NCBI GenBank assembly: GCA_048213135.1
Contig: PS015096.1
Coordinates: forward strand, 30,657-81,267
DNA length: 50,611 nt
Reading direction: 5' to 3'
DNA from: Reclinomonas americana ATCC 50394
Taxonomy: Eukaryota
Position numbers and translations under genes: made by a program. This document shows positions 1,179 to 50,446 of this stretch, piece by piece; the first letter of the stretch is position 1; the number at the start of each line of letters is the position of its first letter. Below the pieces are notes generated by a model. The model was given only the letters and a program-made list of their open reading frames with translations. It was not told the origin of the DNA and did not search any database.

Positions 1179-4100
1179 ACCGTCGTCGGTGGGCGGCAGT
1201 GGCGACGATGATGATCTGATGTCGGAGGCGAGTGGCGTCGGTGGTGGTGTGAGCAGCAGCGGCGCGTCGGATGCCATGTACTCGGATATGAGTGGCAATG
1301 AGCAGGATCACTTGGGTCACTTTTCGCAGACGTACTTGCATTCGGGACCGCGGCGTCTGCAGATGCTGGTCTGTGTGTGTGTGTGTGTGCTCTCTCTTCT
1401 ATCGGTTTGTGTGCGATGTGTGATGCTCACTGCTCTGCTGATAATGTAGGTGGAGACGGAGCTGCGTGAGCGCTCCTCGGAGGAGTTTGGCAAGTTCATG
1501 CACGAGCTGTACCGTTGCGTGTTGTGTGTTTTGTGTCAATGCCAACGTGGAGAGTGGCTCATATACATGCGCAGGCCGGGTTTTCGATTTGGTGAACAGC
1601 TCAGACAAGAACGATCGAGTGGCCGGCATTCTGGCCATTGGTGTGTTGTTTGTCTCCTTCTACGCCTCGTGAATGTCGTGCTCACAAACTGTCCCGCAGA
1701 CGAGCTGATGGACGTGGACTGTGAGGAGACGGCCAGCAAAGTCACACGATTCGGCAACTATTTGCGCATTCTGCTGCCCAACTCCGACGTCGGTGTGGCG
1801 CGTCTGGCCAGCGCCTGTCTCGGCCGATTGGCGCGTGTGGGTGGCACAGTGACAGCCGACCTGGTGGATATTCAGGCACGTCGCGCTCTCGAGTGGGTGC
1901 TGGCCGACAAGGGGCGAGAGGAAAGTCGCCGACTGAGTGGCCTCCTGGTGCTGACGGAGCTGGCGCGCAACGCGCCAACCATGTTCTACACGCATGTGCG
2001 CGGCTTCTTGGACTCGGTGTGGGCACCACTGCGCGAGAGCTCAGTCACCGTCCGCATCGCTGCCGCTCACGCACTGCAAGCCGTGCTGGCACTCATTGCC
2101 GAGCGCCCGCAAGGTCGTGTGGAGGCGCTCCATTTGCTCTTTGATGAAGTCCAAAAGGTGCGTGCTGTGATGCTGTCGAAGTGCAGGAGCGCGATTCTCA
2201 TCATCAATATATGTGTGTGTATATATGTGCAGGGCTTGAAGAAGAAGAGCGCCGACGCGGTGCACGGCTCGTTGCTGGCCATTGGCGAGCTGTTGGCACG
2301 GTCCGGTGACTTTATGCGCGTGCGCTTTGGCGACGCCTGCGCCATTGTGTTGCAGTATCGCGACCACAAGAATCCGCACGTGCGGCGCGCGGTCATTGGC
2401 CTCATTCCCCAACTGGCGGCCTTTGAGCCGCTCATGTTTGCTCGTGAGGGCCACCTCGACACGGCGATTCGGCACCTGCTGAGCCTCACCAAGGCCTCTT
2501 CATCGTCGTCCTCGACCTCGGCCCAAGAACGCGGACCGGCATTCCTGGCTCTCGGTCGGCTGGTGGAAGCTGTGGGATCGTCGGCGTCGCAGTACCTCGA
2601 CGAAGTCTTTGTGCAGATTCGCGAAGCGCTGGTGATTGTCGGCAACCGGAGCAAGCACAAGATGTTCTGTCCCGAGTCGCTCACGTGCATGGCCATGCTC
2701 GGTCGCGGACTGCCGAAGCTCGTGGCACCGCGCATCCCGCCTCTGCTGGGTTTGTTGTTTTCTCCGCGCGCACACTTTTTTTCGTTTCCAGTGGCATGTT
2801 GCTGTAGCTGACGTGTGCGTGTGCAGACGCCATGTTCTCGCATGGCCTCAGCCGAACGCTGGCCGAGTCACTCAACGAGCTGGTCATTTGCATTTCCGAC
2901 TTGCTGGGCATTGTGCAGGAACGCGTGCTGGACGCGGTCAGCATGTTGCTGGCCGGTGCGCCGTTCCGCTTCTTTGCCGGGCGTGTTGGCAGCTCTCGCA
3001 TACATTCGCACCACTCGCTGAAATCCATCTCGGGTCTGCTGGCTGGTCACGGTGACGACGGTAGTGGCGGCTCATCCGCCGACGGCAACGGCTACGCCGC
3101 CCCTATTCAGGCTCCGCATGATGTTGCGTGGGGAGGAGAGAAGATGTTTCTCGCTTGCACCTCATTGTTTCACACGCGTCCTGCAGTTGGAGGGTGTGGC
3201 CGATGCCACCACACTCATGCTGGCGCTCAACATTCTGCGCACCTTCAATCTCGAGGGACACGTGCTCACCGAGTTTGTGCGCGACTGCGTGGTCAACTTT
3301 TTGGATCACGACATGGCGTTGCGTGTTGCTTGATTTCTGTGCTGCATCTCGCCGCGGCGATTGACCGCCAAAATCCTCCTGCACAGTGGCGTGCGACGAG
3401 AGGCCGCGCTGACGTGCTCCAAGTTGATACTGCCGAGCGATGTGGCAGACGGCGATTCGCGCGGTGGCGGTATGCACCTCGGCCCGTACACGAGCTCAGT
3501 TGTTAGTGACGTGCTGTCGCGGCTGCTGACGGTGGCCATTTCCGACCAAGGTTCAGTGGAATCTGTGCACTTGGTTTTGTGGTGCTGCCGCACTGCCTCA
3601 CCACATCCTCCCGACGCAGATGCCGACATTCGATACTCGGTGCTCGTGAGTCTCGATGTGCGGTTCGACAACTACCTGGCTGTGGCCGACAACCTGCGCT
3701 CGCTGTTTATTGTGTTGAATGACGAGAAATTCCAAGTTGCGATGTCCAGTCCCTTTCCGAATGTCGTGCGTTTTTCTCAATGCGTGTCGAACAGACTCGT
3801 GAGGTGGCGATCGCGGTCATTGGTCGCTTGATCTCCAAGAACCCGGCGTACGTGTTGCCTGGCCTGCGCAAGACGCTGCTGCAGTTGTTGACGGAGCTCG
3901 GTACGTGTGTCCCCTCGTCTCGTTCTGGAGTCCTTTGATGGCCTAACCGCACTGTTTGTATGTACAGAATTCAGCACTGATGTGCTGAGCAAGGAGGAGA
4001 GCGCGCGCATGCTCGGACACCTGATTCGTGCTGCGCCTCGACTCATCAAACCATACGTGCCGACCATTCTCAGGGTTTGTCTGCTGCTGTTGTGCGTTTG

Positions 4101-7100
4101 ACTATCCACGCGCAATGCGCTTTTTCACCTCGCCCCCCGCGCTCCTCGCAGGTCCTGGTCAGCCGTCTCTCTGACCACAACACCACGGTGGCCGCATGTG
4201 TGTTGGGCACGCTGGGCGACTTGTGTGTCGTGGGCGGCACCGACATGCTGGTGTACATTCACCAGCTGCTGCCGCTGATCATTGACACGCTGAAGGACCA
4301 GAGTGCGACCTCGAAGCGCGAAGTTGCGCTGTCGACCCTCGGCAAGCTCGTGCAGAGCACCGGCTACGTCATTTCGCCGTTTTACGAGTACCCGGCGCTC
4401 CTGCCCATTCTGCTCAATCATTTGCGGCGAGAGGAAGACTGGAGCACGAGGCACGAAGTGCTGCGTGTGCTCGGCATTCTCGGTGCACTCGACCCGTTCG
4501 AGCACAAGGTTGGGGAGACTCACAGTGTCCCGTGTGCTGCCTCCTTTTGTTGCTCACCAACGCCCCCTTTGTCCACACACAGAATATCCAGCAAAACTCG
4601 GCGGCTCGTGAGAAAGGTTTATATTTCACATATCAATCGCGCTTGTGCTGTTGCCCTGACGCTCTTGCCCATTCTTTGTCACAGCCACCAACACCGAGCT
4701 CCTGCCGACACTGAGCATGGGTTCGTCGCTCGACGAATTCTACCCCAGCAAGGCCGTCCACGCACTGATGCGCATCCTGCGCGACTCGTCACTGAGCGCG
4801 CACCACCACTCGGTGGTCGTGGCGCTCATGTTCATCTTCCGCGGACTCCAGCTGCGCTCCGTGCAGTTCCTGCCGGATGTGATGCCGGCACTGGTCAGCC
4901 TCGTTCGCACGTGCGAGCCGCAGCTGCGCGACTTTGCCTTCCAGCAACTCGGCATGCTCGTCAGCATTGTGAAGCAGCACATTCGCCCGTACCTCACCGA
5001 TCTCTTCAAGGTTCGCTCATCTCGTGTGCGTGTGGCTCCTGTTTGTTTTTTCGGTACTGACGGCACTTGTGTACGCACAGCTGGTGCACGAGTTCTGGCT
5101 CCCCGGCCTGCTGGTCGAGATTATCGCGCTGGTGGAGCAGATCGCACTGGCGCTGTCGGACGAATTCCGCACGCACCTGCCGGAGCTGGTGCCGCAGATG
5201 CTGAGTGTGATGAGCAGTGTGGATCGCAGTGAGCGGCGATTGCCGACGCTCCGCGTTCTGCGCGCCTTGGAGACTTTCGGTCGTCTGCTGGACGACTACC
5301 TGTACCTGGTGGTGCCGGCGATTCTGCGTTTGATCGAGAGCTCACAGGCCCCAGCCATGGTCCGTCAGCAAGCTGTGCGCACCCTCGGTCGCCTCAGCCG
5401 CGTGCTGCCGTTTGGCGAGTACGCCTCACGTATTGTGCACCCGCTGGCGCGTGTGCTTCAAGACGATCGGAATCCGGGACTGCGACAGGATGCGCTGCAG
5501 GCCATTTGCACCCTATTTGTGCACCTCGGCAGCGACTTTGGCGTGTTTGTGCCCATGGTACGTGTCAACGATTGCTCTTCTTTTCCCCTTCCTTTTTGTT
5601 GCCCTCACGTTTTCGTGGCAACCACCAACAGATCAGCAAGACGCTGAAGATGCAGCGCTTGCCGCACGCGCGGTTCGAGGAACTCGTGTCGCGGCTGCTC
5701 AAGGGACAGGCGCTGGTCGACGACGTCTCGTTGGATCCGTTGCGTGACTCTGCGCTGTGCCGAAAGCAAGGAAATCGCGCCGCTCATTTATTTCGCTCTC
5801 GTGCAGGAATGCGGATACGGATCTCGGCAGCGAGTCATCATCCGGTGCCTCGTCTGTGGTGGACGATGCCGTGGAGATCAGCTCGTACAAGAAGTTGCCA
5901 GTCAATGAGCAGAACCTGAAGCGAGGTTTGAACTGCATGCCGTGTCATGCCTGGCTGGCTTCCTTTTGCTTGCTTTCTCACCTCCTGCGCAGCGTGGGAG
6001 GCTTCACAACGCAGTACGCGTGACGACTGGGCCGAGTGGCTGCGTCGCTTCTCAGTGTGGCTGCTGAAGGAGAGCCCGTCGCCAGCACTGCGTTCGTGCT
6101 GCGCTCTCGCGCAAGTGTACCATCCACTGGCGCGTGAGCTGTTCAACGCCGGCTTTGTGTCGTGCTGGAACGAGCTGCAGGAGCAGTACCAGGCCGAAGT
6201 CGTGTGCGCGCTGGAGCAGGTGACGATTCTGCACGCACTACACTTGCTGTCTGCTCCTTTGTTGCCTTGCTGACAAGTGTCTGTCTCCCTCCCTCCTTAG
6301 GCGTTTTCGTCGCCCAACTTGCCGTCAGACGTGCTGCAAACGTTGCTGAATCTGGCCGAATTTATGGAGCACGACGAGAAGCCGCTGCCGATCGACATTC
6401 GTGCCCTCGGTGCGCTGGCCGATCGTTGCCAGGCCTACGCCAAGGCTCTTCACTACAAGGAGCTGGAGTTCCAACAGCAGCAGCAGCAACACTTGGTCCC
6501 TGCGCCAGCCGGTGCGTGGCTTGCCAGTCGTCTATTGTTGTCTGCGTGCACGATTACTGACACACTCTCTCTCTTTGTGTGCCAAAGGCACCAGCACGGT
6601 GAGCGCCATGGCTGAGAGTGTGGAGGCCTTGATCACCATCAACAACCACCTGGACCTGCACGAGGCCGCCATGGGCATTCTGGTGTACGCACAGCGTTCG
6701 CTCAATGTGCCCATGACGGAGACGTGGTACGAGAAGCTGCAGCGATGGGAAGGTGCGTGTCGCCAGGCGATGACAAATGGTTGAATGCGCACTCGTGCCA
6801 AACGCTGACTGCTCGTGACAGATGCGCTGCGACTGTACGAGCAAAAGGAGGCGGACGAGGGTGAAAAGTTGGAGTATGTGCTCGGCCAGATGCGCTGTTT
6901 GGAGGCGCTCGGCGAGTGGGAGCAGCTGCACGACCTGGCGTCGCGCTACTGGCGTATTTCGTCGATTGAGGGCGCGCCGGCACCGACGCCGGCCAGTGAC
7001 CCCCGCCGATCGTCGGCCGCATTACTGCCGCCGACCTTGCTGATCGACGAGACGGCTCGTGAGGTGGCCGCCATGGGTGCTGCCGCTGCGTGGCACTTGG

Positions 7101-7639: not shown

Positions 7640-7696
7640 GTTTGTTGATGAAAGAGGTGTCTGTCTGTACACGCTATCAGTCGCCTTGCTGACCAC

Positions 7697-7818
<122 letters not shown>

Positions 7819-8347: not shown

Positions 8348-9403
8348 CTCCTCCAATCCCTCGTGCCACATCTCGTGCCACAAGATTGCCACACGAATTA
8401 GCTCTTCGGACACCAGCATGGCTTGATCGACCAGCCGTGAACTGTGCTGCCGCATGTCGCTCAGCACCTCGGCAGCAGCGTCTCTCCGTTCGGCATTGGC
8501 ACTCTGTGCATCAAGTGAGCAACCAAAAAGTCCGCTTGTGCTGCCGCACTCTCACGGAGACGAAAGGGCGAACGAACCTTGGCAGCGACTGTCACCGGAT
8601 ACACCAGCGCCTGCGGGTGTTCCTTGCCGATGCGCGACAACAGGTTCATCACCAAGTCGCGAATCGGTTGTACGTGCGTGTGGATACGAGCCATGAGCTG
8701 CGGGATGACCGCCAACCAGGTCTCCACCGGCAACGCATCAAAGCCCTCCAGCAGTGCCCGCCGTACACCCTCCTGCTCGCCGTGTTGGAACCACACACCC
8801 AGCAGGCGCAAAATGTCCTGCAGTGTTGCGCGGCCATCCCGCGAGAGCGACACCGATCGCACGTAGCCTTGCACACATTGCACCGTATGCGGCTCAATGT
8901 CGGTGGTCGGCGCATTCGAGCGTCGCTTCTTGGCCGTGCTCGCTTCACGTTCGTACAAGTGCACGATCTGTTTGCCAACGGCTAAAAAGTGAGCACTGCC
9001 GATCAATGTGAAAAACTGCGCAGTCGATCTTTCCGTACCTGCGAGTTGGCAAGCGCCCACAAATGCCACGCCTTGTGCCAGTCGGGATCGAGCTGTGTGG
9101 CCTGCGTGTACAACGCAAGCACTCTTTTCAAGTCGTCCTCCTGCAGCGAGAGATGCAGCGTGTCAGAGGCGTGGACAAGTTTGTGTATGTAAAGAGTAGG
9201 AGAGACGCAACCGATTGCTCCTCTGTCACGTGCTCCTCCCATGTGCCGAGCAATACGCAGCACCGTGCGCGCAGCTTGTTGGGCGTGTGCGGGCGAGATA
9301 CAAAGTCCTTCATCATGGAGAGCGCCAGCGGCTGCAAGTCATTCTCGTCGTCGACGTTCTGACTGCCGAGGCTCCACATGAATTGCAAGTATGACACAAT
9401 GAT
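8348..9403 (-). CDS. TOR: TOR kinase, C-terminal FAT to start of FRB (inverted contig)
   Basis: [67 protein letters not shown]. Confidence 0.95.
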
Positions 9404-9747
9404 CTGTGGCAAAACACACANNNNNNNNNNNNNNNNNNNNNNNNNNNNNNNNNNNNNNNNNNNNNNNNNNNNNNNNNNNNNNNNNNNNNNNNNNNNNNNN
9501 NNNNNNNNNNNNNNNNNNNNNNNNNNNNNNNNNNNNNNNNNNNNNNNNNNNNNNNNNNNNNNNNNNNNNNNNNNNNNNNNNNNNNNNNNNNNNNNNNNNN
9601 NNNNNNNNNNNNNNNNNNNNNNNNNNNNNNNNNNNNNNNNNNNNNNNNNNNNNNNNNNNNNNNNNNNNNNNNNNNNNNNNNNNNNNNNNNNNNNNNNNNN
9701 NNNNNNNNNNNNNNNNNNNNNNNNNNNNNNNNNNNNNNNNNNNNNNN

Positions 9748-10900
9748 TAGCCGACCATGCTCATCACGGCCAGTGACCTTGTGTAGTTCGTGCGCCGATC
9801 GAGCCACACCTGACGCGCGCGGCAGAGTCAGTGGAGACAGCGAAGGGCAGCAAAGAAACACTGACAAACCTCAGAGTTGCGGCTCTTCAACCATAACACC
9901 TTGTACAGATCCTGGCCGGTGGTGTTGGCCAGTGCATACTCAAACACCTCGACCTTCTGAATCAGCGTCAAGTGGTCAAAGTCTGGCGCCATCTGCAGCA
10001 TGAAGCGGTGCTCGACGTTGAGCAGAATCTTGCGCGACTCGCGGTACTCCTTGATCAGTGCGTGCAGCGTGTCGCAGTTGGGCACCCAGCCAATGAGACC
10101 GGCGTTGTTGGAGAGCGGGATGACCGAGTAGCGCTTGATGTTGAGATCGCGACGCGAGGTTTCTCGGTCGTGTGTCAGCAGCGTGTTGACGAGGCCAAAG
10201 AGCTGCATCACACGCTCGTCGAGACGCAGATCCTCGTGGCCCTTGAGCAAGAAGGTGTGTTCCTTGCCGTCGCTTCCGTAAATGGTCAGCTTGCGCGGCC
10301 GCTGCTTGGAGGCGATGACATTCAGCACTGGCGAGAAGCCAGAGATGCGTACCACCTCCTGACCCGCATTGTACATGCCTAGAACAGAGATCACGCAGTG
10401 AGTCAAGATGCGCGCAAAGGGAGAATGAGGCAGTGCGAACCGGGCACAGAAATGTCGAGATTCTTGGCCTCCTGTCCCAACTTGGGCGACACATACTGCA
10501 GCTCCAGTGTGGTCATTTGTTGCAGTTGCTTGGTGATGCGACGGAACACCTGCGTGCACAGATTTCAGTTCGTCGTTTCTTGACGTGTATGTAAAGGCAC
10601 ACACGCGTCCACGCAACATGATAGTACAAGTCCCAGGCCTGGTTGAGGTCGGATTCCTTCTTCGAGCGCTCGTATTTCTGCACAGTTCTTTTGGTGAGCT
10701 GCAAGAGACGCGGGAACATCACCAACAGGATGAAGAAGACTCGCCTTGCACCACTCGTGTGCTTCCTGCAGATCGCGACCAAAGGCCTGCTGGAAGGAAA
10801 CCTCGCGAAGTGTCACTGCCTTGTCCATCATTTCATGAAGCGGCTCCAGCTGCGCGAACATGCCCTGCACATTATGCTCGCCAAAGTACAACCTTGATGC
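9748..10900 (-). CDS. TOR: TOR kinase, FRB and N-terminal part of the kinase domain (inverted contig)
   Basis: [11 protein letters not shown]...[62 protein letters not shown]. Contains one GC-AG intron (donor 10744). Confidence 0.97.
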
Positions 10901-11786: not shown

Positions 11787-12857
11787 CATTCTTGGTCTCG
11801 GCGACAGACATCCCTCCAATCTGCTGCTCGATCGGCACTCGGGCAAGGTCATCCATATTGACTTTGGCGATTGCTTCGAGGTGGCCATGAAGCGCGAAAA
11901 GTACCCAGAGAAGATCCCATTCCGCCTCACGCGCATGCTGGTCAACGCCATGGAGGTGCGTGTGCCGTTTTTTTCCTCTTCCTATCTCAAGCTCCAATGC
12001 TCACAAATGTATGTGTGCCACTTGCAGGTGTCCGGCATCGAGGGCACCTTCCGCAGCACGTGCGAGAGTGTAATGCGTGTGATTCGCGACAACAAGGTGA
12101 TGCATTATCCGTCGTTGTTGTGTGTGAAGTGGATGGTGGTGAATGCTGACCGAGGGGACTGTGTGTTTGTTTGTGAACAGGACTCCATCATGGCCATGCT
12201 GGAGGCCTTTGTGTACGACCCGCTGATTTCATGGCGTCTGCTGACGCAAAAGAACGTACCACAACACAGTTCAACTGGCGGCTCCGGAGCCTCGGGAGCC
12301 TCCGGCAGCATGGGCACGCCGGTGGCCGGCGGCTCAGGCTCTGGCGGTTTGGCCGGAATGATGGTGTCGAGCGGTGGTGCCAGCTCTGGGCGACCCACGC
12401 TGGCCGAGTTGCAAGCGGAAATGGCCTCGTCTCGTTGCGTTGGCGAACACGTGAGCGCTCTTGTGTGTCTGTGCCGGAAGCTGACAGCGGAGTGTTTTTT
12501 TTTTGTGGAAACAGACGAGGGCAGCCTCGGACACATGCCACGCAGTGTGCGCGAGCGCGAGCTGCGCGAGGCGCACGGCGAGGAGGGACTGGGTGCACGC
12601 GAAGAGGACATTAACGAGAAGGCCATGTCGGTCATCCAGAGAATCACCAACAAACTTAATGGTCGCGACTTTAACGCGCAACCACTTGGCGTCGCCGAGC
12701 AGGTTGATCGACTAATTTTGCAAGCACGCAGCCACGAAAACTTGTGCGAGTGTTACATTGGGTGAGTGTCAGTCAGTGGAGAGAGTGTCACCCATCCGCC
12801 CCCCTTTGCTCACTTGCTTCCTCGTCGCATCCTCGCAGATGGTGTCCGTTCTGGTGA
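11787..12857 (+). CDS. TOR: TOR kinase, remainder of kinase domain and FATC
   Basis: ILGLGDRHPSN, HIDFGDCFE, PFRLTRML, LEAFVYDPLISWRL, ENLCECYIG|WCPFW followed by TGA at 12855-12857. Confidence 0.98.
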
Positions 12858-12997: not shown

Positions 12998-15900
12998 TTA
13001 CGCCGGTGGCACGGTCCGCGAGTTCTCGGTAATGTGCTGCACGAAAGAACAGCAATGTGAGGCTCAAGGTGTTGGCTCTGTGTGTACGCGTGTGTTTGTC
13101 GCTCACCGCCTGCAGCGCCTGCACCCACTCTTCGCGAACAATGTGATTGGCCGCCTCAAAATCGACCGTGCGGTCCGCCGTCTGGATGTAAAATGTCTGG
13201 GTGATCTTGTTGCCTGTGTGTGTGTGCACACAATGGTGAGGATCACGGTACGAGGCGACTGGATAGAAAACGAAAAGGACGAAACAGACTGCGGCACGCG
13301 ACAGAATGTCGGAGCCCGAGTTGCCACTCTTGACGGTGGCACCGACCAGCGACACGCTGCGTTCGGCCTTGCGACGATCGGGTGTGGTCCACACCAAATT
13401 CATGCCCTTTACCTGCACGAAACGTGCATGTGGAGCTCCACGATGACCGTGCTTGACAAATATTTGACCTGTGTGTGTGTGCACAATCAGAGTCGAAGTC
13501 CATTCCGCAAAACAGAGCAAGTGACAACACACACACACGCACCATCGGCAAGCAGACGCATGCGGCGTTCGGGTGTGGCACCAATGGCTCGCGACTCGGC
13601 CAGCTGGTCGGTCAGTGCGCCGACCTGCGTGCTGAGTTCGTTGATGCGATGCTCGTTCACTTCACGCTCGCGGCCGCGGGTCAACTCGAGTGCATCCTGC
13701 GATAATGACATGTGAGCACTGGGGAAAAAAACGAACGACACTTGTCGCTCACCTTAGCTGTGCGCACGGCCTCCAGCTCACCACGAGCGGCGCGCAAGCG
13801 AGTCTCCAGCTCATGCATCAGTTGCTTCATCTGCTCATTGGCAGCCACCACTGACGACGCTCCCGCAGCGTTGGTCTGTGCGGCGGCAGCCGAGGCCTCG
13901 GCCACGGCCAATGCCCGGCGCAGACTGTCCACTTCGTCGTCGCGTGCGTGGGAGGCGGAAGTCGCCGCCGCCAACTGCTCACGTACGGTTGTAATCTCGG
14001 CATCGCGTTGCGCCACCGTCGCCTCCAAATGTGGTACCCTGCGTGCGAGCACGTCGTGCTTCTCCTGCAACTCTGCCAACTGTCGTCGCAACGCTGCCGC
14101 CTCCTCCGATGCCACTGGCGATGCCACTGGCGATGCGGCCTGGAGGGGGAAGGTGAGATCGATACAAGAGTGACTGAAGATAGAAAGGTACGCAACAGCA
14201 GGCACGGGACTGCTCGACGACACTGGCATGGCGCGTTCACGCTGCAGTCGCTCCGCCTCCTGTGCCAAAGCTCGCTCCTTCTCTTGCAGCTTGGTTTCCT
14301 GGCGAAAACGAAACGTGGGTGTGTGCGGTGCATGCACACTCAACACAAATGAGACGCACCAGATCCAACAATTGCTTCTGTCGTTTCTCCGCCTCCTCGC
14401 GCAGTCGCAGCTCCTCGCGTTCGCGTGCCAACAGCTTTTGCTCCTCCTGCTCGCGTGCCTGCAGCAGAATTTCCCGCATACGCCGGTTCTGGTTGGCAAA
14501 TTGCTGTGGAAGAACAGGCAAGGGCGGTTGGTGAGGGAACAGGAACACGAAAAAATAAAGAAAAGTGGCGCTGCGGCGCACCCTCAAGAACGCCATAAAG
14601 TCCTCCGAGTCGAAGCAGCCGCGCGGTCCCGACTCCAACGACACCGCCACACACATGCGCTTGTTGTTCCGCACTCCATCGTCGGCTGCTAGGTCGTCGC
14701 CTCGCATCAGATTTCTGCATCCAAAAGGATGGTGAGTTGAACGGCACGCACACAAAAAGTGCAAGTGCCGTTGAGAGCACGCAACAATATGTGCGACTCG
14801 ACGCCCTTGTCCAGAGTCATGAGCGAGTAACGTACGCGCCCCTTGGCACCCTGCGGCACATTGACCAGATCCAGCGACCGTAATCGGTCCGTAAGATACT
14901 TGCCGCATTGCTGATCCTCGCGGACCTGCACGTAAGAGGGAGAGGGGTCAGTGAGGGACAGGAGAGAGAGGGGAGAGAGAGAGAGAGAGAAGGAGAGGGG
15001 GAGAGAGAAGGAGAGGGAGAGAGAGAAGGAGAGGGAGAGAGAAGGAGAGAAGGAGAGGGAGAGAGAGAGAGAGAGAGAAAGAATAGAAGAGAGAGAGAGA
15101 GGCCGGCGCACCTGATGCAAGCACGCGAGCGCCACGCCAATGACGTTCTCGCCCCACGATGATGTCAGCAGCTGAAGTGATTTGGCGGCCTCGCGCGCAA
15201 TCGGCGGCTGCTCGTACTCGCTCACCGCCCACGACGGTGTCGTCACGTGCGACAGAGCTGTCGGGGAGCGCCGAAGTACGGAAGGACGACGCTGTCGCGA
15301 CGAGCCGCCGCCGGAGCCGTTGGTCGATGCCGCCGAGGCCGACGAGGAGTACAAGATGCTTTCCAGCAGGACCTGCACACACAAAAATCAGATGCCGCCC
15401 ACCAGCCCAACACACAGGAGGTGGTGACGAACCGACAGACTGATGGCGTCGGGGTCGGAGAGCTGGATGCCGAGGAGGTTGTTCAGTTGTTTCTCATACC
15501 TACAACAGGAGAAGAGTGAGAACTTGGGAGAAACGGCGTGGTGTGCGTGTGAATACTCGCAGTCGCACCGTGGTTGAATAAACTCGCTCAGCGCGAAAAT
15601 GTACTTGCTCTCGCGCACGGGGCAGTCGCGCAGAATGACGGCGCGCACCTCGTCCGACTGCGGGAACAGCAGATTCTTGGTGGCAAACATGGGATTGCGA
15701 GCCACCTGCGGGGGCGGGCCTGTGCGACACACGGGCGTCAGCGTGCGACACAACATCGCCGAGTGATCCTTGGTCACTCAACTCATGGACGACGACGAAT
15801 CGCCTGGAACGCGAGGCGTCTGCGGCAAGAGTGTCCGTGGTGTGATCATGTCGTCGAGGAGACCCTCCTCCTTCAGCAGCTGCTGCTCCGCCGAACCCTC

Positions 15901-16452: not shown

Positions 16453-16489
<37 letters not shown>

Positions 16490-35447: not shown

Positions 35448-38400
35448 ATGTCACTCTACAGTCGACGGCGAGCGGGTTCCGCCGCCCCGGCTCCTCTCTC
35501 CGACGCCGTGTCGACTCCCTCTGGATCCACTCAGCGACCGCAAGCTACACCTCTCTCCGCGCAGATGAGCCACATGCGCATCATGCGCGCGTCGCCCTCG
35601 GTCTACTCATCACCCAAGACGCCGGCGACCTACATTGCAAGTTCCTCACCCGGAGCCTCAGTTCAGTTCACTTGCTCTCTCTCACTCTCTCTCTCACTCA
35701 TTAACACTTGACTGACTTAACTCGTCGTCGCTCAGCCACCACTGTCGCAGCGGCATGATGATCAACAGCAACAGCAGCAGCAGCCACCAGCAGCACCACA
35801 AGAGGAACGCAAGCGGAATCGCTCAGTGGCAGCGTTTCTGTTCGCCGCGGCCGTGGCCAGTCAGGAGGGCAAGCTGCAGAGCACACCGAGTGCACGCGAC
35901 CTGCTGCTGGCCGAGAGACAGACGTGCGGCTCTCTCTCCTCTTTGTGTACGCTCACGCCCTCCGCTGATCTTCTCTGTCTTTCTGGGCGTAGATACATGG
36001 GATCGCCAGTGGCCACCGCAACGCGTCTGTCACCCTTGGCGGCCGCCGCACAGCTGCCACCGCGCTTGACGTCGGTCCTGGTGCAGTCCAAGTTGCTGGA
36101 CGATGTGGTCGACGAAGTGTGCAACAGTGACGATGACGACGACGACGATGCTGCGGCTGGGATCATTCGTGACGATGGCGACGACGGCGACGATGATGTG
36201 GGAACGAGCAGTCGGAAGACAGTTGGTGGTGGCAGTGGTATTGAGCGTGACGACGATGGTGAGCCGTTCTTCTTCTTCCGCGAGCACGCACCGCGGCCGG
36301 CGTCGGCTATATCGACGGCGTCGGCGACGCGCCCGACGTGGTGGCGCATCAAGAGTCGATCGACACCGCTTGCTGTCTCCTCGGCCACTGCTGTCGCTTC
36401 GCCGACGTCGACCACGCTGCTCAGTGCCACCGCTCGGCGACAGCTGGTGAGCACCGGCACCAATGCCAAGTCGTTGATCCGACGCGCCACCTCGGCCGTG
36501 TCTCGTGGCTCCCCTTCGTCGGCATCGTCCGCATCGTCGCCGGCGTCGTCGGCGTCGGTGATTATGGAGGCTGCCGCCGTCTCCACCACCAAACAGCCGC
36601 GCACCAGCCAGTGGTGGCTGGCTGCCCAACGAGAACCACCGCCGGTGACGCCGCAAATGTCGTCCACCCCGCTGCTGTCCACGTTTGACCTCGACGGTCT
36701 GCTGCCATCGACTCCCGGTGGAGGTGCGTGCGAACAGAAAGAGAGAAGTGGACAGAAGAGCTGACACGTTGCATTTCGTCGACGCAGGCTCCACTTTCCT
36801 CACCGATCTCGACCACCTGGGCCCGGAAGAGGAGACGCTGTCGTCCATGTCGCAGTCCATGACCACGGTGCAGTCCTTGTCGACCATGAGCAAGACGCCG
36901 GCGCGGCGTGCACACGCTGTGACTCACGACATTGCACAAGTGATTCGTTGCGTTGGTACTTCGCTACCCCTCACGTGGTACTTTTTGGTGCCTCCTGTGA
37001 CTGACTCGGGCCGCAGATGAGGTGGAGGAGATGCAGCGCTCGCTCAACAGCGGCAACATCCCCGATCGCCTCATTCCCGACCACGTGCATCGCCAGCCAG
37101 CACTGCTGGCCAGCATGTCGTCGCACCACGGACATCGCGGCTCGGTGGTGCAGGGTGCGGGTAATACACCGGGACCTGCGACCGGTGGGACGCCGGGAAA
37201 GCGCCCCCGTGCTCGATCGGCTTCCATCATGTCGCGACGCTCACGGCGCAGGACTATTTCACCTCGTGCGGTGGGCTCGGACGACGAAGGCGGTGGTGGA
37301 ACGGAGATGCTGGTCGACATGAGTTTCGAGGACAGTCACCGACGCGGCCCGCAACACGTCAATCTCAAGGAGCGTGTCAACTCTCGCTTGGATCTGTACT
37401 TGCACGATGAGGAGGCGGCCAAGGTGTTTCTCAAGCGCACACTGGAAATGGAGGAGGATGTTGCGTGTACTCGTACCCGAATACCACCTTTCTCTACACC
37501 TTTCTCTACTCCGCGTATTTGTACTCAATACCCCTCCCCCCCCCCCCCCCCTACACAGCGTCGCAAGCAGCGCCTATTACGTCCGGTCTCGGCCAATGCC
37601 ATCTATCGGAACACCAAGTCAGTGGTTGATCGCAGCCCGGAGCGTCGGCAGCAGATCGAGCAAGCCAAGGCGGAGCGTACGCGGCAACATGCAGAGGACA
37701 CGGCGCGAATGCATGCGGAGCGTGTGGCTGCGCGCCTGCAGCATCATCAGGAGACGGTGGCGCGCGTCGAGCAACGGCAACAGCAGTTCGAGGAGGAGTC
37801 GAAGCGGGCGCAATTCATTCGACGACTGCGACCACAGATCAAGACGTGGCTGGCACTGGCGAACCTGGCCGTGCGACTCGAATTCATGAGCGACCGTCTC
37901 AACGAGTTGCGCAAGGAGTGGAAGGAGGCTCGCATGCGCGAGTGGGCCGCTCGTGTCATCCAGGAGCGCTTCTTCCCGGTGGTCAAGGCGCGCGGCATGC
38001 TCGTGATTCGGCGGGCGATGAAGGTGCTTGGCCGCAACATGTGGCGTGCCATGCTTAAAGTACGCCTCATGCGCAAGCGGCGTGCGGTCGAGCTCATTCG
38101 CTTCTATATCTCGGGCCTGTCACACACTCGCAAGTTCGTCACGGCGGTGGAGGCCTTTGCGCGGTCAGTGCGTTTCGTGCAACGTGTGGTGCGCGAGTAC
38201 GTGGCGAAGAGGAGAGCCAACATTGCACTCAATGTGGAGGTGAGAGAGGCTGTTTTTTTGCATGCTGTGCTGGCGCAAGAGAGCACCACTGACGCGACTT
38301 GTGTGCTGAGCAGAAGGTGTTGATGTACCTGCGCGTGCTGCATAAGCTTTCGGTGCGCGCATCGCAGACGCTGGAGTGGGCACCCAACGACGTGGAGGTG

Positions 38401-39256: not shown

Positions 39257-41423
39257 ATGTCAGGAAAGCATTCGGTCAGTGCGCAGCGCGACCGACTTGC
39301 TCGTGTCACTTGTCTCTGCCACCTCTCTCTTTCTCCTTTCCTCTCCGCTGCCTCTCCTCTTCCCCACACCATCGCACGGCGCACTACAGCGTCTGCTAGT
39401 CACCGCTGCCTCCACCAAGTCACACAGTTAACTTGATTCCTTCTCATGGTGTGTGTGTGTGCGCGAATCTTGACAGTCGCCGACACATGGAGGAGGCAAG
39501 GCACCGTCACAGTCGCACGAGGATCGCCACCGTCGTGTGCACGCCGACACCACCAAGGCTGCATCGTCGCCGACACGCTTCGACGACGAGGGCGACGATG
39601 ATTATGAGCGCAAGGCACGCGGAAGACGTGGTGGTTCTCATGACGGCGACGACAATCCGAACGCTGACATTTGCCGGATTCTCGACGGTGAGCTTTCACT
39701 TGCCACGCGCCACGTGCGGCTGGTGCGTGGATCGCTCACTGACGGAGGGTATGGGGGGGAATAGAGATGTCGGAGGTGGAGGCTGCCAAGGGCGAGCACT
39801 GGCGTTCCCTGGCGTATCATCGGGTTCGTGTTTGCAGAAGGCCAGCTTGCAGGGCGACTAACTTTGGCTCACGCTTCTCTCATCGTTGTGGTATACCTGT
39901 AGGCGTCACGCAAGCTGGCGTCGCTGCCGTATCGCATCGAGTCGGTGAGTGGTGAAGTTGTCGTCGATCGTGCTTGAGGAGACAGGTGGCTGAATTTTTG
40001 TGGATTCTTCGCAGGGCGATGAGGCGCAAGAGGTGATCGCTTGAGTCTCTCCTCACCAACTTGTGGTATCTGTAACACTCAATGCGTGTTCAGCTCGACA
40101 CCATCGGACCGAGCATCGGTGCCAAGATCGACGAGATTCTGCATACGGGCACTCTGAAAAAGTATGCATTCCTCTCGTTTTTCTGTGTCAGACTGCATGA
40201 GCTGATGCGTGCGACACACTCGCGCAGACTGGAAGAGGAGGGCTCGTCGGAGAACATCAAAGCGTATCGCGACCTGATGCGAGTGCACGGCATCGGGCCG
40301 ATCAAAGCACACCAGCTGGTGGCGGGTGGGATTCGCTCGGTATCGGAGCTACTCGAGCATCCCGAGTTGCTCAATCGACGACAGCGCGTTGGTGCGTGAC
40401 TACAATCGCCCATATGCTCGGAAAGAGGTGTCATGCTCATCGCCGACTCCCTTTTGCAGGTCTGCAACATCTGGAGGACTTTGACCGGCCGATTGGCCGG
40501 CACGAGATCGCCAAGATCGAGGCAGCACTGGAGCAGACGGCGATGGAGGCGCTCGGGCCTGGCGCGCGCTTCGAACTGGTGGGCGAGTACCGACGCCACG
40601 AGGAACCGCTGACGCGAGTGGACGTGCTGATTGCACATCCGGATTTCGTATCGGAAGGCGGTCGACCGGCCACGCACAACGCAACTGGCACCGAGCTGCT
40701 GCGCCGGTACTTGCGCGAGCTGCATCAGCGTGGCATCATCACGGCCGACATTACCGACAATCCACAATCCAAGTACATCGGCGTGTGCCACGACGTTGCG
40801 TGTGGGACCAGTTGTAACGCATACTCCGTCGTACCCACCCATGTGCTTCCTCCGCTCCCACAGCCGAACGGTTCCGACATGATGAAGTACCACCCGATCA
40901 TGAGTTGTGTTTCCTCCCGCACTCGTCGCCTGAACGAAGCCTGTCGCTAACTCGGTGTATCTCCTGCAGTCCGCATCATCCCGTACGATCGTTGCGCGGA
41001 CTCCCACAGCGTCGCCCTGCGCTGCAGTCTCCTGCGTACTCACACGCCACAAAACAGAGTATTACGCGGCACTGGTCGGCCTCACCGGAAGCCAGGACTT
41101 CAACATGCAGCTGCGCCGAGTGGCCAAGAACAAGGGCTACCTGCTCGACGACTACGGCCTCTTCAGGCGCAACGCCGACGGCTCAGTGGTCAGTCACTGT
41201 CTGTCGCACACAAGAACTCACTATTGCCTCACACATTCGCGCACACACACAGGGTCCCGCGGAGCCGATCGAGAGCGAGCGTGACATCTTTGACAAGCTC
41301 GGCGTGGAGTTCACCTACACCCCGCTGCTGTGGCAAGAACACGAGGGCGAGGAGGGACACACGGCGCACAAAAAGTCATCGCACCACCACGCCAGCGGCA
41401 GCTCACACGAACAAGTGCAGTAA
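39257..41423 (+). CDS. DNA polymerase family X (Pol beta-like) with degenerate polymerase active site
   Basis: NPNADICRILDEMS...WRSLAYHRA, LDTIGPSIGAKIDEILHTG, RVHGIGPIKA, GLQHLEDF, GEYRRHEEPLTRVDVLIAHP, KYIGVC, LTGSQDFNMQLR, ESERDIFDKLG. First exon tentative. Confidence 0.92.
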
Positions 41424-43115: not shown

Positions 43116-46100
43116 TTACCGCCCATCCCGCCGCAGACGGCCGAGCCGTGCGGCCTCCGCATACGCCTGGTCGTCCTCGGGCTCCACACCCTCCAGCGCC
43201 TCTCGGAAGGCACTGTCGTGCTCCCGTCGCGCCTCCTGCATGTGCTCACGAACACGCGGACCAATGCAGCGGCCCCAAACTTGCGACGACGACGATGATG
43301 ATGACGGTGTGCCGGTTGTAGAGCCACCGTTCGCGGCACTGCCTGTCGATGACTCAGTCGACGACGACGACGAAGATGATGACGACGACGAGGAAGACGA
43401 GCCGGGAGGCGCCGACGGTCGAGATTTCATGCCCTCCTGCAGGCGCACACCCGTGAGTGATGAGGAAAGGAAGGGAAAAGAAACAACAAAGGGAAGGGGA
43501 CGCACCAGTGCACAGTCGGAGAGCACGGGTGGCGCCGACCACTCGCGCGGTCGGATAATGTACTCGCGATCCGGCAACAACAACACCTTGTCGCCCACAC
43601 GCCCGGTAAACACCACCGATTCGGTGACACCGGGTCCGCGCTCCGACGGCCGACCGTCCAGGTCCACCACCTCCAGCGTCTGGCCCTTCCACTGCCACGC
43701 TGGCTCGTCTCCGCGCCACGTCTCGTCGTCGCCATCGTCGGTGTTCTCGCTGCGGTAAAAATCGGCGAGGTTCGGCAGCGAGAACGAAAGCGGCGTGTTC
43801 ATGTAGTTGCGCACACGGAAGTGNNNNNNNNNNNNNNNNNNNNATCGTGCCACGTCTCCATGCTCCATCCGCGCTCGCGCAGCTGATTCAGCTCCGACGA
43901 CGTCACAAAGACGACCTCCGGGTGATTGGCGCGCAGGTACTCCACCGTGCGCACAAACGCCGAGCGCATGTACGCAGTAAAGTGCTGCGAATAGATGCCG
44001 CGGATCCACGACTGGAGGTGCCACATGAGAATGGTAACGGCTGTCGCTCAATGACCTCGCTCAGCAAGTGCAGGCGCTCCTCGACCTCGAACTCGGGCCA
44101 AATAACATCCCACCGCACTCGATCCTGGTACGCCACGCGCGGTGGCACGTGCCACGGCAGCTGCACAGGCTCTGTCGGCAACTCGGGCGCTGGTTGTTGC
44201 TGCTGCTGTTGTTGTGACGATGAGCTGTCAGCCGGTGCCGGTGTATCGTGCTCCAACACACGGNNNNNNNNNNNNNNNNNNNNNNNNNNNNNNNNNNNNN
44301 NNNNNNNNNNNNNNNNNNNNNNNNNNNNNNNNNNNNNNNNNNNNNNNNNNNNNNNNNNNNNNNNNNNNNNNNNNNNNNNNNNNNNNNNNNNNNNNNNNNN
44401 NNNNNNNNNNNNNNNNNNNNNNNNNNNNNNNNNNNNNNNNNNNNNNNNNNNNNNNNNNNNNNNNNNNNNNNNNNNNNNNNNNNNNNNNNNNNNNNNNNNN
44501 NNNNNNNNNNNNNNNNNNNNNNNNNNNNNNNNNNNNNNNNNNNNNNNNNNNNNNNNNNNNNNNNNNNNNNNNNNNNNNNNNNNNNNNNNNNNNNNNNNNN
44601 NNNNNNNNNNNNNNNNNNNNNNNNNNNNNNNNNNNNNNNNNNNNNNNNNNNNNNNNNNNNNNNNNNNNNNNNNNNNNNNNNNNNNNNNNNNNNNNNNNNN
44701 NNNNNNNNNNNNNNNNNNNNNNNNNNNNNNNNNNNNNNNNNNNNNNNNNNNNNNNNNNNNNNNNNNNNNNNNNNNNNNNNNNNNNNNNNNCGATGGCCGC
44801 CGGCGCCGTCGGTCGAACTCGACTTGGAGGGTGCGGGCGGAAAGCGTGACGGTTTTGGCGATGCTGCCACGGGGGCCTTGCGCTTCGCGCGCAGTGACTC
44901 CGCCACCATGGCACTGATGCGACTGGCGGCTGCCTTGGCGGCAGTGGAACGCGGAGCCGGCGGCGGCACTGCAGCCACGTCAATGTAGGTCTCCGTGGCC
45001 CGCAAACCGAGTGCGTCCATGGCGTACGCCTGGTACGGGTGCGACACGTTGTGCGGGCAGTTCATCACTTGCGGCCGGTAGCCCCACAGCTTCTCAAACG
45101 TCTGCACGCCCGGCAAATGCCACTCGACCAGCTCCTCCACCGACTGCCACATTCAACGAGAGTACATCAGTACCTTCCCAAGCAGCAAGTAGCAGTCATT
45201 TGCTACACAGATACACACACGCACGCTGGTCCACAAACCTCAAAGTCCAGATTCTCGCTGCGCAACCCCGTGTACTCGCCCGAGCACACGATTCCGTATT
45301 TGAAACAGAGTCGAGCGGCCTTGTCGTTGTTCTTCAACAAGTTGACCCACTTGTGTGGCGCAATGTGCGAGCGGCCGTGATACTCGGGGTGCCAGACGCC
45401 ACGCCGGAACAGCAAATGGTACAGAGGTCGCAGATCGCCGCGCATGTACGGCAGACGCGAATGGCCGCCAGCCGAGTCATCCCATCGCAACTCGCGGTAT
45501 TCGCACTGCGGTGACTCCGGGCATCCCAACTCCTTCATCGCCTCCTGCACAGCACACGTCAGCCGGATCGCACGCCACAAAGAGAGAGAGAGCAACTTCA
45601 ATAAAAGAACGCAACGATATCAGGGCCGCCAACTACCCAAAACGGTGTAATCACCACCTGATGTCGATGCGACAGTGGCCGCCGCGGTGCCGAGCGATTC
45701 AGCCGCTCCATCGACGCCAACAGCGATGTGAGATCCTCCACACCCTCCAGCGACGCGTAACCCCACGCTGCACGCAGGCAAAGATGAGGGGGAAAACACA
45801 CAAAATCGTGCAATTCTCAACTCCTCACACACCCTTGTAGGTCTCCTCGCCCGGCAACCCCTGCTCCATCAACTCCTTGCGCATCTCCGGGCTGGAGAAG
45901 CGCGGCGCAGAGTCCGCCCAGTGACCCCAATCATCAGAGCTGATCACCACAAACCTGCACACACAAGACGAGCACGCATGAGTGCTGCAGTGACACGCGT
46001 AGATCACAAGTGCGAGCTTTCAACATGAACATGACGTGCTCGCCTAACACACACATGCACACACGCTCTCTCCTTGCTGCTGCTGCTGCTCACTGTGTCT

Positions 46101-47031: not shown

Positions 47032-50000
47032 TCACTGAGCGGCCGATGCAGCAGCGTCCTTTTCGTACACATCCCACAGCTGAGCAAATGAGTCGTCAAG
47101 GCAGCGCTTCAGATCGCGAAATCTGCAACGCGTTGTGAGTCACCCCGAGCACACTCTCATCGCTCCTCACTCGTGAACACAACTTGACCGCCAGCAGCGT
47201 TTGTCCATCGCGCGAGAGCAGAATACACCGTTCATCGACACCCGCATCCAGCTGTGTGTGAGTGGTGGTGAGATTACACGTAAGAGTGGAAAGAGGGCAC
47301 GGTTAAAGGAGAACGAAACTCGGTTCAGGTTGTCAACGACGTGGCCGTAGTCAATCACAGGAGCGCCTGACTCCGACGTCTGCAACACGGCGCACTCAGT
47401 GAGTCTCCCTTTGTCACACACACAAGTGCGCAAACGCGCGAGACCATCACTCGCTCACCTGGTGGAACAGGAAATCGCGGAACAGCTTGAGCAGGTAGCG
47501 GTCACCGGTCTCTGACCAGGTGGTGTCCTGATTGAATCTGTCACACACGAAGACAGGTGAGCCGGCAGCACCCAAGATCGGCGATGGTAGGAGGAGTACG
47601 CAACTCGGGTCTTTCGTTGATGAAATTCAGCTTGGCCAGCAGACGGAGAATGCGACCATTGTTGAACTCCTTGTACAGATCTCGTTCCAGCGCATCGGTT
47701 TGCCTACCACCACACACGGGACGTTGAACTCAACCACGAACTCACACTTCTCTCTGACACCCGACGTACCCGTACAAGCTCTCCAGCTCGGCCATCACAT
47801 GCGGGGTCGCTCGCTCCAGCAGCTTGGCGGGTCCCTCCACCGCCGAGAACATGATCTCCAGCACCTCCACCAGCATCGGCGAGTAGTTGCGTGCGGCCTG
47901 TTCACGTGCTCATGAGTCACCTCAACAAGGAAACAGTGGGGAGCCACGCAAGACGAACCTGCTGCAACATGATTTGCACCTCGTGGTCCCTGACCACCGT
48001 GAGGGTGGCCAGTGACAGCATGGAGTGCGCCAACTGCACCATGTCTTGCATCTGAACAAGCACATGGCGTCAGCGGCGTGCAACACACACATGCACCTTT
48101 CTACTTTTCTCCCCCAACACATGCCTGCATCTCCTCAGTGGTGGCGTCCATGTCGGGATGGAGCACATCAGCAATGCCAATGTTCTTGATGCGGATTCTG
48201 CGCGCATGACAGGTAAGCTACAGAGGTCCGCACATAGTCAGAGCAGTGTCGTCGCACCGATTGGGTCCCGTCAGCACCATGTTCGACAGCGCGATACACC
48301 TCAGAGCGAGGCCGGCTTCGTGAATCTTGTTCATCACCGACAACAACTGTACAATGTAGCTCCACAACACTCGCTCACTGGCAAACTGCACGCAGGATTA
48401 TGAGACATGAGACGCTCGAAGACGACAGATCATACACACAACACACCGATCGTGTCTCCGACGACGTGAAGAAGAACGAGTACACCGTCTGCAAAGTCGG
48501 TTGCATCTCATACACAAACACCATGTCTGTGCGGTCGAGCACAGAAATCAGCAACACAGCACTGCGTCGCCACGGCCACACGCGTGACACAAACCTGACG
48601 TGTCAAAGTCGCGCGAGTAGAATACATCGGTGAGGTTAACAATGCTCGGGTGAGCGATTGACTTCCACATGTCAGCATTGGCGACGGCGTACTACACGAA
48701 CACCGGCACTCCGAATCAGGACCACAGCAGTCAAACCATCCTTGCACGCAACCAACACGAACCTCGGCCTGCTGCTTCACCGAAGTGACTCTTCGCAGGA
48801 TCTTGGGCGTGCCGTCAACCTCATCTATCGCCTTGTACGCCGCCGTACGCAACGAAGGGTCCCACCTAAAACGAAGACACAAAGAGACACACCAACCATT
48901 CAGCTGTTGACCGCCACGTATTGAATGCGCCTGGAACACATACCCCGACGGCTGAGGTGTGGTCTCCAGTGGGTAGATCGAGTGGTAGCGCTGGCGCAAC
49001 ACTTGTGGGACGGTGCTCGAGTGCTCGTCGGTCGCTGCATCGGTGGAAGGGGTCAGCCAAGAAAGCTCGGTCGTCACGCTTCTCAAAACAAACGCAACGG
49101 ACTGTGGCCGTCTGCAGACGGGAGGCACTCTCTAGTCGCTGTCGCAGATTCTCGGCCACAAAGAACTGCGACATGCTGGCACTGCCGCCCACTGGCGCTG
49201 CACACATTCCACGAAGACAGATATGAGGGCCGCGAAACAAAGGTGCAATCGACAGGATGTCCTGCGTACCTGCACCTCCGACGCCGGACGCAGCACTGCC
49301 AGAAGCACCACTGCCGGAACCGGAGGGCATGTTGGAGGACCCCGGCACCGGCATGTGTCTCCGATCCGGTCGCCGGTGCGCCACGGGTCGCGAGAACGGT
49401 GGCGGCTCACCCTTTTGTCACACGAAAAAGTGAGTTGTCGCCCCAACAGAACGAGAGGATGATGCAACTCAACTGCATGGCCGTGCGCATGCGCACCAGG
49501 CTGCTGCGACGGAATGAACAAACTGTTCCCGCTGCCGCCGCCTCCGCCACCGACCACCACGGGACCACCGACCATGCCGCCTGCGCCACCAGGAGCACCT
49601 CCACCAGGCATCATTCCACCGACATTCGGTTGCAACACTGGAGTCGGCTTGCGCTGTGGCACGGCTTGCGGCGGTCCGTGCATGGCGCCGGGCGGCATCA
49701 TCGGATGCATACCCGGGTACATGGGCCCACCAGACGGCGGAGGACCCATCGGTTGCCCGGGGATGTACAGCGACGAGCCGTGTCCGTGAGTGTGAGCCAT
49801 GGGATTGCCAGGATGCCCGTACGGCGGCCCTGGCATCCCGTATGGAGGCATTCCCCTGCACACAGAGCGTCGATCAGCTCACATCCCACACAGGCGCGCG
49901 AGAAGAGGGAAGCCAAAACAAAACACAACATTTGCGACGAGAAGGGGGACGGGTTGCCGAGGAACACGGGCGGAGGATGTTGCGGCTGTTGCGGATGTGG

Positions 50001-50446
50001 TGGCGCCATACCTTTGGCCATTCGCGCATGTGAGTCGCCTTCTCTCACTCACACTACAGTGAGGAGCACACATGAACGCGCCACGCACCAGCAGCAGGTC
50101 GGAACTCGGGGACCTCATCAGGGCTCCAACTACGACCACACACGATGCGCGCGCGCGCACACACTCCACAAAGTGAGATTAACAAAATTGATGTGTGTGT
50201 GCGCACACACAGTCTCTCTCTCACACACACTCTGTGCGTGGAGTGTTGCCACAACGATAACAAGAGAGAGACAGCGGGTGCGCAAGTGAGTGAGTGTGCG
50301 TGTGCGCGTGTGTGAGCGACATGCTCTGCTTGACAACACCTCGATGGGCATCGTGAATCAGAGAGAATGTGCGTGTGTGCGTGTGTGTTACCGTGTGAGT
50401 CACCACACTGTGCGTACGTGTGCCGAGCACGCAACTTGGCCGCCAT
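47032..50446 (-). CDS. PAN3: PAN2-PAN3 deadenylase subunit PAN3 (pseudokinase plus C-terminal knob)
   Basis: [90 protein letters not shown]. One GC-AG intron (donor 48124). Confidence 0.95.

Follow-up and report, generated by a model that had tools for sequence, protein, structure and literature searches.

The question raised by a 50,611-base stretch of the Reclinomonas americana ATCC 50394 genome (contig PS015096.1, positions 30,657 to 81,267; below, "the window") is how its splicing machinery handles introns that start with GTTGCG. The window is gene packed and eukaryotic, with a G+C content of ∼59% and 3,750 N across nine gaps, and its genes are interrupted by numerous short introns. A preliminary description had counted about 30 introns with this start, placed their cut before the first G, and viewed the donor as an ordinary one displaced by one base. 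We found that the GTTGCG class makes up roughly a quarter of the confident introns in the window, and sequence statistics together with homology support the reading of its 5' splice site as one apparently displaced by a single base. Below, a slash marks the cut, numbers are positions in the window, and minus-strand sites, as in the preliminary description, are named by their higher coordinate followed by a minus sign.

We predicted introns with our own exon-intron parser, which scores codons by log-odds, accepts introns of 38 to 400 nucleotides (nt) with GT or GC...AG ends, and uses signal terms for the 3' side only (branch-like motif, YAG, length). An intron passed our own filter when both flanking exons outscored the other five reading frames in coding score. 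Without any donor knowledge beyond GT or GC, the parser predicted 293 introns, of which 99 passed, and GTTGCG was the top donor hexamer both before (20/293) and after filtering (15/99, with GTGCGT at 5). This run misplaced several class donors by a few bases or did not predict them. With a self-trained first-order donor model, the parser returned 433 introns on the two strands, many of them antisense shadows, and 93 passed the filter: 22 started with GTTGCG and 10 with GTGCGT, and every other hexamer was found at most 4 times. GTTGCG is therefore, as had been claimed, the commonest single donor hexamer within the window in both runs. Confident donors represented 22 of the 77 GTTGCG hexamers present, versus 10 of the 95 GTGCGT hexamers.

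The motif was found at all 30 coordinates listed earlier, and 29 of them have a gene-finder acceptor 57 to 110 nt downstream. By our count, 26 of these sites read GTTGCGT, three read GTTGCGC (24129, 24886, and 40991), and one reads GTTGCGA (3736). Seventeen were donors in the run without donor model and 29 in the trained run, and 20 passed the filter. We identified a further class site, 32139-, that was absent from the earlier list. In the TOR gene, 8 of ∼32 introns belong to the class (our own count, which includes by-eye corrections at ∼4075, ∼7640, and ∼12765).

Evaluation of the motif itself revealed 77 copies of GTTGCG on both strands of the whole window, against a mean of 55.3 (standard deviation, 7.0; maximum, 70) in dinucleotide-preserving shuffles (n = 100), none of which reached 77. 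The heptamer GTTGCGT accounts for 35 of the 77 copies, and by our count 27 of these 35 fall at the 31 sites (the 30 listed plus 32139-). As a control, we collected 80 metagenome TOR loci of other, unrelated eukaryotes (0.98 Mb, found with a TOR kinase exon, all at 76% identity or less). In these loci, GTTGCG had a density of 0.22 per kb for the gene strand and 0.25 for the opposite strand, with no strand bias, compared with 0.82 per kb per strand in the window. It is thus hard to credit that the class is an artefact of hand counting or of the gene models, with a motif that is merely common in G+C-rich DNA. The shuffles do already yield 55 copies, 10 of the 30 sites fail the coding filter, and a trained model could reinforce itself; however, GTTGCG ranks first even without a donor model, homology backs the junctions wherever they are testable, most of the heptamers sit at class sites, and the 80 control loci have no such excess. 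Sense-strand exonic GTTGCGT otherwise seems rare. One in-frame copy (Ser-Leu-Arg) lies in a PAN3 exon at 48847-48853 (-), 12 nt past the acceptor, and is apparently unused as a donor.

We then looked into the position of the cut. All 31 class sites begin with GT, and the 30 modelled acceptors end in AG (29 CAG and 1 TAG). Since a cut 3 nt further on (GTT/GCG, giving a GC-AG intron) would also keep the frame, the two versions had to be compared by homology. For the TOR junctions, both were aligned to 162 TOR homologs, and only homologs aligned across the junction entered the count. The first-G cut was better in 129/129 informative homologs at 10617- (128 of them ungapped), in 24/24 at 3736, in 19/19 at 3318, and in 6/6 at 1514, the last two also being ungapped. 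It was better in 3/3 homologs at 12434, a small number. Three other junctions fall within variable regions and are of little help: the homologs in favor of the first-G cut and of the alternative numbered 14 and 4 at 5739, 51 and 38 at 9211-, and 1 and 1 (of 3 homologs) at 3123.

In PAN3, the exon upstream of 47604- ends at residue 740 of the human protein (9qtu_A) and residue 357 of the fly protein (4bwp_A), and the next exon begins at residues 742 and 359, respectively. This leaves room for exactly one split codon, which fits the first-G model and is incompatible with the GC alternative. In PolX, 28 of 34 homologs were informative at each of two junctions: 18 favored the first-G cut, 6 favored the alternative, and 4 were tied at 40795, and the corresponding numbers were 16, 5, and 7 at 40904, where the top alignments are ungapped. 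At 40991, the stretch IPYDQYY aligned without gaps to PolX homologs, and the GC alternative creates an in-frame TAG; it also creates a stop codon at 50435. Removal of the introns restores a continuous homologous protein at the four TOR junctions, at one PAN3 junction, and across 40904 and 40991 in PolX. Class sites outside the TOR, PAN3, and PolX homology were assessed by coding score only. Judged from these alignments, the class is cleaved before the first G, as initially proposed; four TOR junctions, PAN3 47604-, and PolX 40991 bear this out, and the protein contexts given for TOR (DLYYH/VFRRI and DEKFQ/TREVA) and PAN3 (INERPE/FNQD) were all three right.

True GC-AG introns do occur in the window. 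The one at 10744- (aag/GCGAGT), which the gene finder missed, was preferred over the gene-finder model by 119/125 informative homologs, and it keeps a G at position -1 and the ordinary register. We also noticed a second candidate GC-AG donor, ccg/GCGAGT, at 28658 on the plus strand. That the class itself consists of GC-AG introns cut at GTT/GCGTG, with an exonic GTT, has practically no likelihood left: the existence of such introns and the preserved frame speak for it, but it loses to the first-G cut in all informative homologs at four TOR junctions, conflicts with the PAN3 residue count, introduces stop codons at 40991 and 50435, and disagrees with the real GC donor of this window, which is a G at -1 followed by GCGAGT. 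This reading is refuted wherever homology is informative. U12-type introns are known by the 5' end RTATCCTT and the branch site TCCTTAAC. A U12-type identity was rejected as well, as the sites read GTTGCG and their 3' ends resemble those of other introns.

Comparison of the 31 class sites with the 55 other filtered GT donors showed what sets the class apart. The other donors read G/GT(G,T,A)(C,T,A)GT(G), whereas the class reads Y/GTTGCGT(G). A G at -1 was found in 47/55 of the other donors versus 3/31 of the class (Fisher P = 2.6e-12), and the class has a pyrimidine at this position in 24/31 cases. The same contrast recurs when only homology-verified TOR junctions are considered (15/15 versus 0/4; P = 2.6e-4) and in the run without donor model (44/83 versus 0/15; P = 8e-5), so it is not a product of the trained model. 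Donors with GT at +5 and +6 have a G at -1 in 28/28 cases, and 27/31 donors with T at +3 and GT at +6 and +7 lack it. The G that follows the GU is also found at similar frequencies, at +8 in the class (15/31) and at +7 in ordinary donors (15/28), and the UGCGUG block of the class sits one base later than in ordinary donors. Among GTNGCGT heptamers, 20/35 were confident donors when N is T, 0/19 when N is G, and 0/10 when N is C, GTAGCGT being absent from the window; the extra base must be T. The displacement by one base suggested earlier is thus corroborated by the lost -1 G, by the later UGCGUG block, and by the acceptance of T only. In other respects the class introns (∼57 to 110 nt) are similar to the rest: their median length is 69 versus 67 nt, they share the RCAG acceptor, and their phases are comparable.

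The preliminary description had also listed sister forms, GTTGAGT and GTTGTGT, as displaced versions of two other ordinary donors. They are present at all four places named, and the cut is backed by homology only at 40904; 25899- and 49473- were no donors in the trained run, and the PAN3 exon downstream of 47183- gave no PAN3 match in the structure database. Displaced forms of this kind are few: among their occurrences in the window, gene-finder donors represented 2/6 for GTTGAGT, 4/16 for GTTGTGT, and 3/6 for GTTCAGT. Ordinary GTNNGT donors have C (16/28) or T (9/28) at +4, with 3 A and no G, and GTAAGT has only 3 copies on both strands of the window, none of which is a confident donor. Together with the weak predicted pairing and the fixation on GCG described below, this C/T preference at +4 and the scarcity of GTAAGT suggest that the RNA or protein that does the reading may differ from the textbook one.

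We propose, with moderate confidence, that the class consists of ordinary U2-type GT-AG introns whose 5' splice site, Y/GUUGCGU(G), is recognized in a register shifted by +1. Early recognition would be offset by one base relative to the ordinary donor G/GUGCGU(G): the intronic G+1 would stand in for the exonic G-1, U+2 would occupy the place of the ordinary G+1, and U+3 to G+8 would take the places of the ordinary +2 to +7. With the class slid by one base to the right, all conserved letters coincide with those of the ordinary donor except the ordinary G+1, which is a T here, and it is this T that lets a GT begin at the earlier G. Since the catalytic core needs a GU at the intron start, the cut would then fall one base upstream of where the shifted register would place it.

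Several points weigh against this proposal. Under a pure shift, position -1 of the class should mirror position -2 of ordinary donors, where A is found in 23/55 cases; A occupies -1 in only 4/31 class sites, and a pyrimidine prevails there. The class is also far more fixed on GCG than ordinary donors are, and it does not simply amount to the ordinary donors at large displaced by one base. Pairing was predicted by nearest-neighbour folding against the standard 5' end of U1 given in PMC4856993. The mean duplex energy was -1.3 kcal/mol for the class versus -6.0 kcal/mol for the other donors, and in the best duplexes of the class, C4 of U1 pairs with +6 in 10/31 cases and C9 never pairs with G+1. 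When the sites were ranked by this pairing against 1500 random GT sites, the area under the curve (AUC) was 0.28 for the class and 0.83 for the other donors. A shifted helix with standard U1 is thus unsupported by the predicted energies. Moreover, the intron calls are based on coding potential and homology only, the shares given refer to one 50-kb window, and the set of ordinary donors comes partly from a self-trained model.

The closest alternative keeps the same cut and the ordinary register and accommodates the extra base as one bulged U ("bulge +2/+3" or asymmetric loop), with G+1 paired to C8, U+2 paired to A7, U+3 looped out, and GCGU serving as the ordinary +3 to +6. One-base bulges and asymmetric loops in the helix between the 5' splice site and U1 have been validated in human cells (Tan et al. 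2016, PMC4856993; see also Roca et al. 2012); like the class, they have one extra nucleotide between GU and the equivalent of +5G/+6U, and PMC4856993 includes a bulge +2/+3 register for GUU sites. The UGCGUG block aligns equally well in this arrangement, and as only UU lets either U bulge, it would also account for the requirement for T. However, -1 would still face C9, and a weaker, bulged site should need the -1 G at least as much as the ordinary donors do, which have it in 47/55 cases (28/28 for GTNNGT); the expected exon-side pairing of G-1 with C9 is available at only 3/31 class sites and at 0/4 verified TOR sites. The two human bulge candidates tabulated in PMC4856993 do retain a G at -1 (GAG/ and CAG/), and the predicted stability of the bulged helix is poor too. 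Because a bulge predicts that the exonic -1 matters, and yet its G is lost, we prefer the shifted register and consider the bulge rather unlikely. A different alternative, which we regard as equally doubtful, is that two parallel 5' splice-site codes coexist, with Y/GUUGCGU read by a changed 5' end of U1 or by a second U1-like RNA complementary to GUUGCGU, for example with A for C opposite U+2 or G in place of the pseudouridine facing the C. Such a class would be a strong site instead of a tolerated misfit. In favor of this reading, the commonest class pairs with standard U1 worse than random GT sites do, and GTAAGT, a perfect match to standard U1, is scarce and never a confident donor. The C/T pattern at +4 of ordinary donors is the one expected opposite a G, although the preference for C there could also stem from the high G+C content, and the class, which lacks the G-1/G+1 core, insists on GCG as if full pairing were required. 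On the other hand, few RNA sequences of eukaryotes are as strongly conserved as the U1 5' end. In silico variation of U1 positions 5 and 6 singled out no variant (best overall AUC, 0.75), as decoys gain stability too. A search with Rfam models at gathering thresholds detected no RNA gene, and hence no small nuclear RNA (snRNA) gene, within the window. Variant U1 snRNAs are known in humans and provide a precedent for an extra U1 species (PMC3561869).

A historical explanation, in which the class is the relic of the spread of an introner family whose elements ended in GTTGCGT, has very little to recommend it. A fixed heptamer without the exon-side AG/G "proto-splice" context might be a trace of insertion, but the interiors of the class introns resemble one another no more than the interiors of other introns do (mean local score, 7.8 versus 8.0), target-site duplications are lacking (0 to 1 of 30 at k = 3 to 5), and lengths, acceptors, and phases match those of other introns; such a history would in any case leave the present need for site recognition. 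Returning to the shifted register, the weak predicted pairing with standard U1 means that the lineage probably adds something, either help from proteins or a modified or additional U1-like 5' end, which is the weaker part of our reasoning. Special recognition machinery of this kind, whether a U1 variant or protein help, is plausible on the basis of the modelled pairing.

Human 5' splice sites with a shifted register were described by Roca and Krainer 2009 (cited in Tan et al. 2016, PMC4856993): recognition marks such a site in one register, and the requirement for GU, instead of the U1 register, subsequently sets the cut. Like the class, they have GU at the cut, U at +2 and +3, and the consensus G and U one base later (PMC4856993). 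They differ from it in that they are rare exceptions, whereas the class represents about a quarter of the confident donors here, and in that they depend on an extended AAGUAU-type match to U1, as in ACA/GUCAAGUAUA (PMC4856993), whereas the class is fixed on GCGU with very weak predicted pairing to standard U1. The validated noncanonical bulge and loop registers of humans together cover 1.5% of 201,541 sites (PMC4856993). A likeness also exists with the left- and right-handed 5' splice-site classes set by LUC7 proteins (PMC11842720), which likewise form two donor classes within one genome, one leaning on the exon (G-1) and one on the intron (non-G-1, the consensus G lying past the GU). As described there, those classes share one register, whereas the intron-side class here has an extra base and the ordinary class keeps G-1 even with a perfect intron side (28/28). 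For one human tandem donor, it has been proposed that the U6 register is flexible (PMC11162779). Tunicates provide a precedent for lineage-wide donors that do not match the U1 5' end, but they abandon GT-AG (PMC13326754), which the window keeps. Literature searches on the motif, on shifted registers, and on unusual protist donors found no paper on a GUUGCG donor class; one may still be published, e.g., in a genome paper.

Shifted or bulged donor recognition has so far been known only as a rare exception, studied in human cells by means of minigenes. In the window, one fixed out-of-register site is used by about a quarter of the donors, among them donors in essential genes such as TOR, PAN3, and the PolX polymerase. 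A genome of this sort would offer a natural setting in which to ask how register and cut are determined by U1, U6, and their proteins, how much drift the U1 5' end tolerates, and what donor models gene finders need in such lineages. Models built for a G at +5 and at -1, as is standard, would put these introns in the wrong place or overlook them. If the dedicated code were true, a nearly universal U1 recognition sequence would have diverged or been duplicated in a free-living eukaryote that retains GT-AG introns. The class sites and the GC-AG control are listed in Table 1.

Table 1. Introns and candidate introns of the GTTGCG class, one sister form, and the GC-AG control (lowercase letters, exon end; slash, cut; "both runs," runs with and without the donor model; "filter," coding filter on the flanking exons)
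Feature	Coordinates	Strand	Donor	Length (nt)	Basis
TOR intron	1514..1574	+	acc/GTTGCGTG	61	Gene finder and homology
TOR intron	3123..3186	+	gat/GTTGCGTG	64	Gene finder; variable region
TOR intron	3318..3386	+	ggc/GTTGCGTG	69	Homology
TOR intron	3736..3794	+	caa/GTTGCGAT	59	Homology; DEKFQ/TREVA
TOR intron	5739..5806	+	tcc/GTTGCGTG	68	Gene finder; variable region
TOR intron	9141..9211	-	tcg/GTTGCGTC	71	Gene finder; variable region
TOR FRB intron	10550..10617	-	cat/GTTGCGTG	68	Homology; DLYYH/VFRRI
TOR intron	12434..12514	+	ctc/GTTGCGTT	81	Gene finder; few homologs
Intron	14140..14196	-	gct/GTTGCGTA	57	Passes filter
Intron	14715..14785	-	att/GTTGCGTG	71	Passes filter; also without donor model
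Intron	16085..16165	-	tgc/GTTGCGTC	81	Passes filter; also without donor model
Intron	16438..16506	-	gtc/GTTGCGTC	69	Passes filter
Intron	17919..17984	-	gat/GTTGCGTG	66	Passes filter; also without donor model
NADAR-gene intron	22171..22276	-	act/GTTGCGTG	106	Passes filter
NADAR-gene intron	22321..22388	-	gct/GTTGCGTC	68	Passes filter; upstream exon is Pfam NADAR
Candidate NADAR-gene intron	22606..22695	-	agt/GTTGCGTT	90	By eye only; predicted in neither run
Candidate intron	24129..24196	+	gag/GTTGCGCA	68	Trained run only; fails filter
Candidate intron	24886..24956	+	gat/GTTGCGCG	71	Both runs; fails filter
Candidate intron	26097..26169	-	gac/GTTGCGTG	73	Trained run only; fails filter
Candidate intron	28951..29015	+	tcg/GTTGCGTA	65	Trained run only; fails filter
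Intron, new relative to the earlier list	32063..32139	-	act/GTTGCGTG	77	Both runs; passes filter
Candidate intron	33120..33183	+	ttc/GTTGCGTC	64	Both runs; fails filter
Candidate intron	33457..33525	+	tca/GTTGCGTT	69	Both runs; gap cuts next exon
Intron	36947..37016	+	ttc/GTTGCGTT	70	Passes filter
Intron with C run	37460..37558	+	gat/GTTGCGTG	99	Both runs; passes filter
PolX intron	40795..40863	+	gac/GTTGCGTG	69	Passes filter; adjoins variable loop
PolX intron, sister form	40904..40969	+	tga/GTTGTGTT	66	Homology
PolX intron	40991..41057	+	atc/GTTGCGCG	67	Homology; stop codon in alternative
Intron	45545..45615	-	atc/GTTGCGTT	71	Passes filter
PAN3 intron	47538..47604	-	cga/GTTGCGTA	67	Homology; INERPE/FNQD
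PAN3-gene intron	49035..49098	-	tcc/GTTGCGTT	64	Both runs; passes filter
Candidate intron	50326..50435	-	caa/GTTGCGTG	110	Trained run only; weak flanks
Control: true GC-AG TOR intron, FRB region	10678..10744	-	aag/GCGAGT	67	Homology

The genes that carry these introns were assigned as follows. Homology places TOR at 1179-12850, and the minus strand from 13000 to 19500 holds a coiled-coil gene and one more gene. The NADAR-domain gene was recognized by its match to Pfam NADAR, the PolX polymerase by a match to Pfam DNA_pol_B_palm and by homologs, and PAN3 by matches to the structures 9qtu_A and 4bwp_A. In the NADAR-like gene, the piece upstream of 22695- had no Pfam match, and an in-frame TAA is found at 22726-22728 (-), between FSNF and KHPIWVDG and 31 nt upstream of the 22695- donor, at a position where an aromatic residue is presumably expected in the family. 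A sequencing error could account for this TAA, as could a pseudogene or allele; genes read elsewhere in the window end normally. An intronless open frame of 399 codons at 33566-34765 (-), without a Pfam match, is odd amid its intron-dense neighbors.

Within TOR, two gap-bounded blocks, 8314-9420 and 9748-10937, are each inverted in place, as seen from the order of the matches along a TOR homolog: 2808-7579 (+), 9149-8348 (-), 10918-9750 (-), and 11788-12762 (+). An orientation error during scaffolding is the most likely cause. Long (GT)n and (CT)n microsatellites adjoin several of the N gaps, e.g., at ∼7690-7818 within the TOR intron that starts at ∼7640, and probably caused the assembly to break there.

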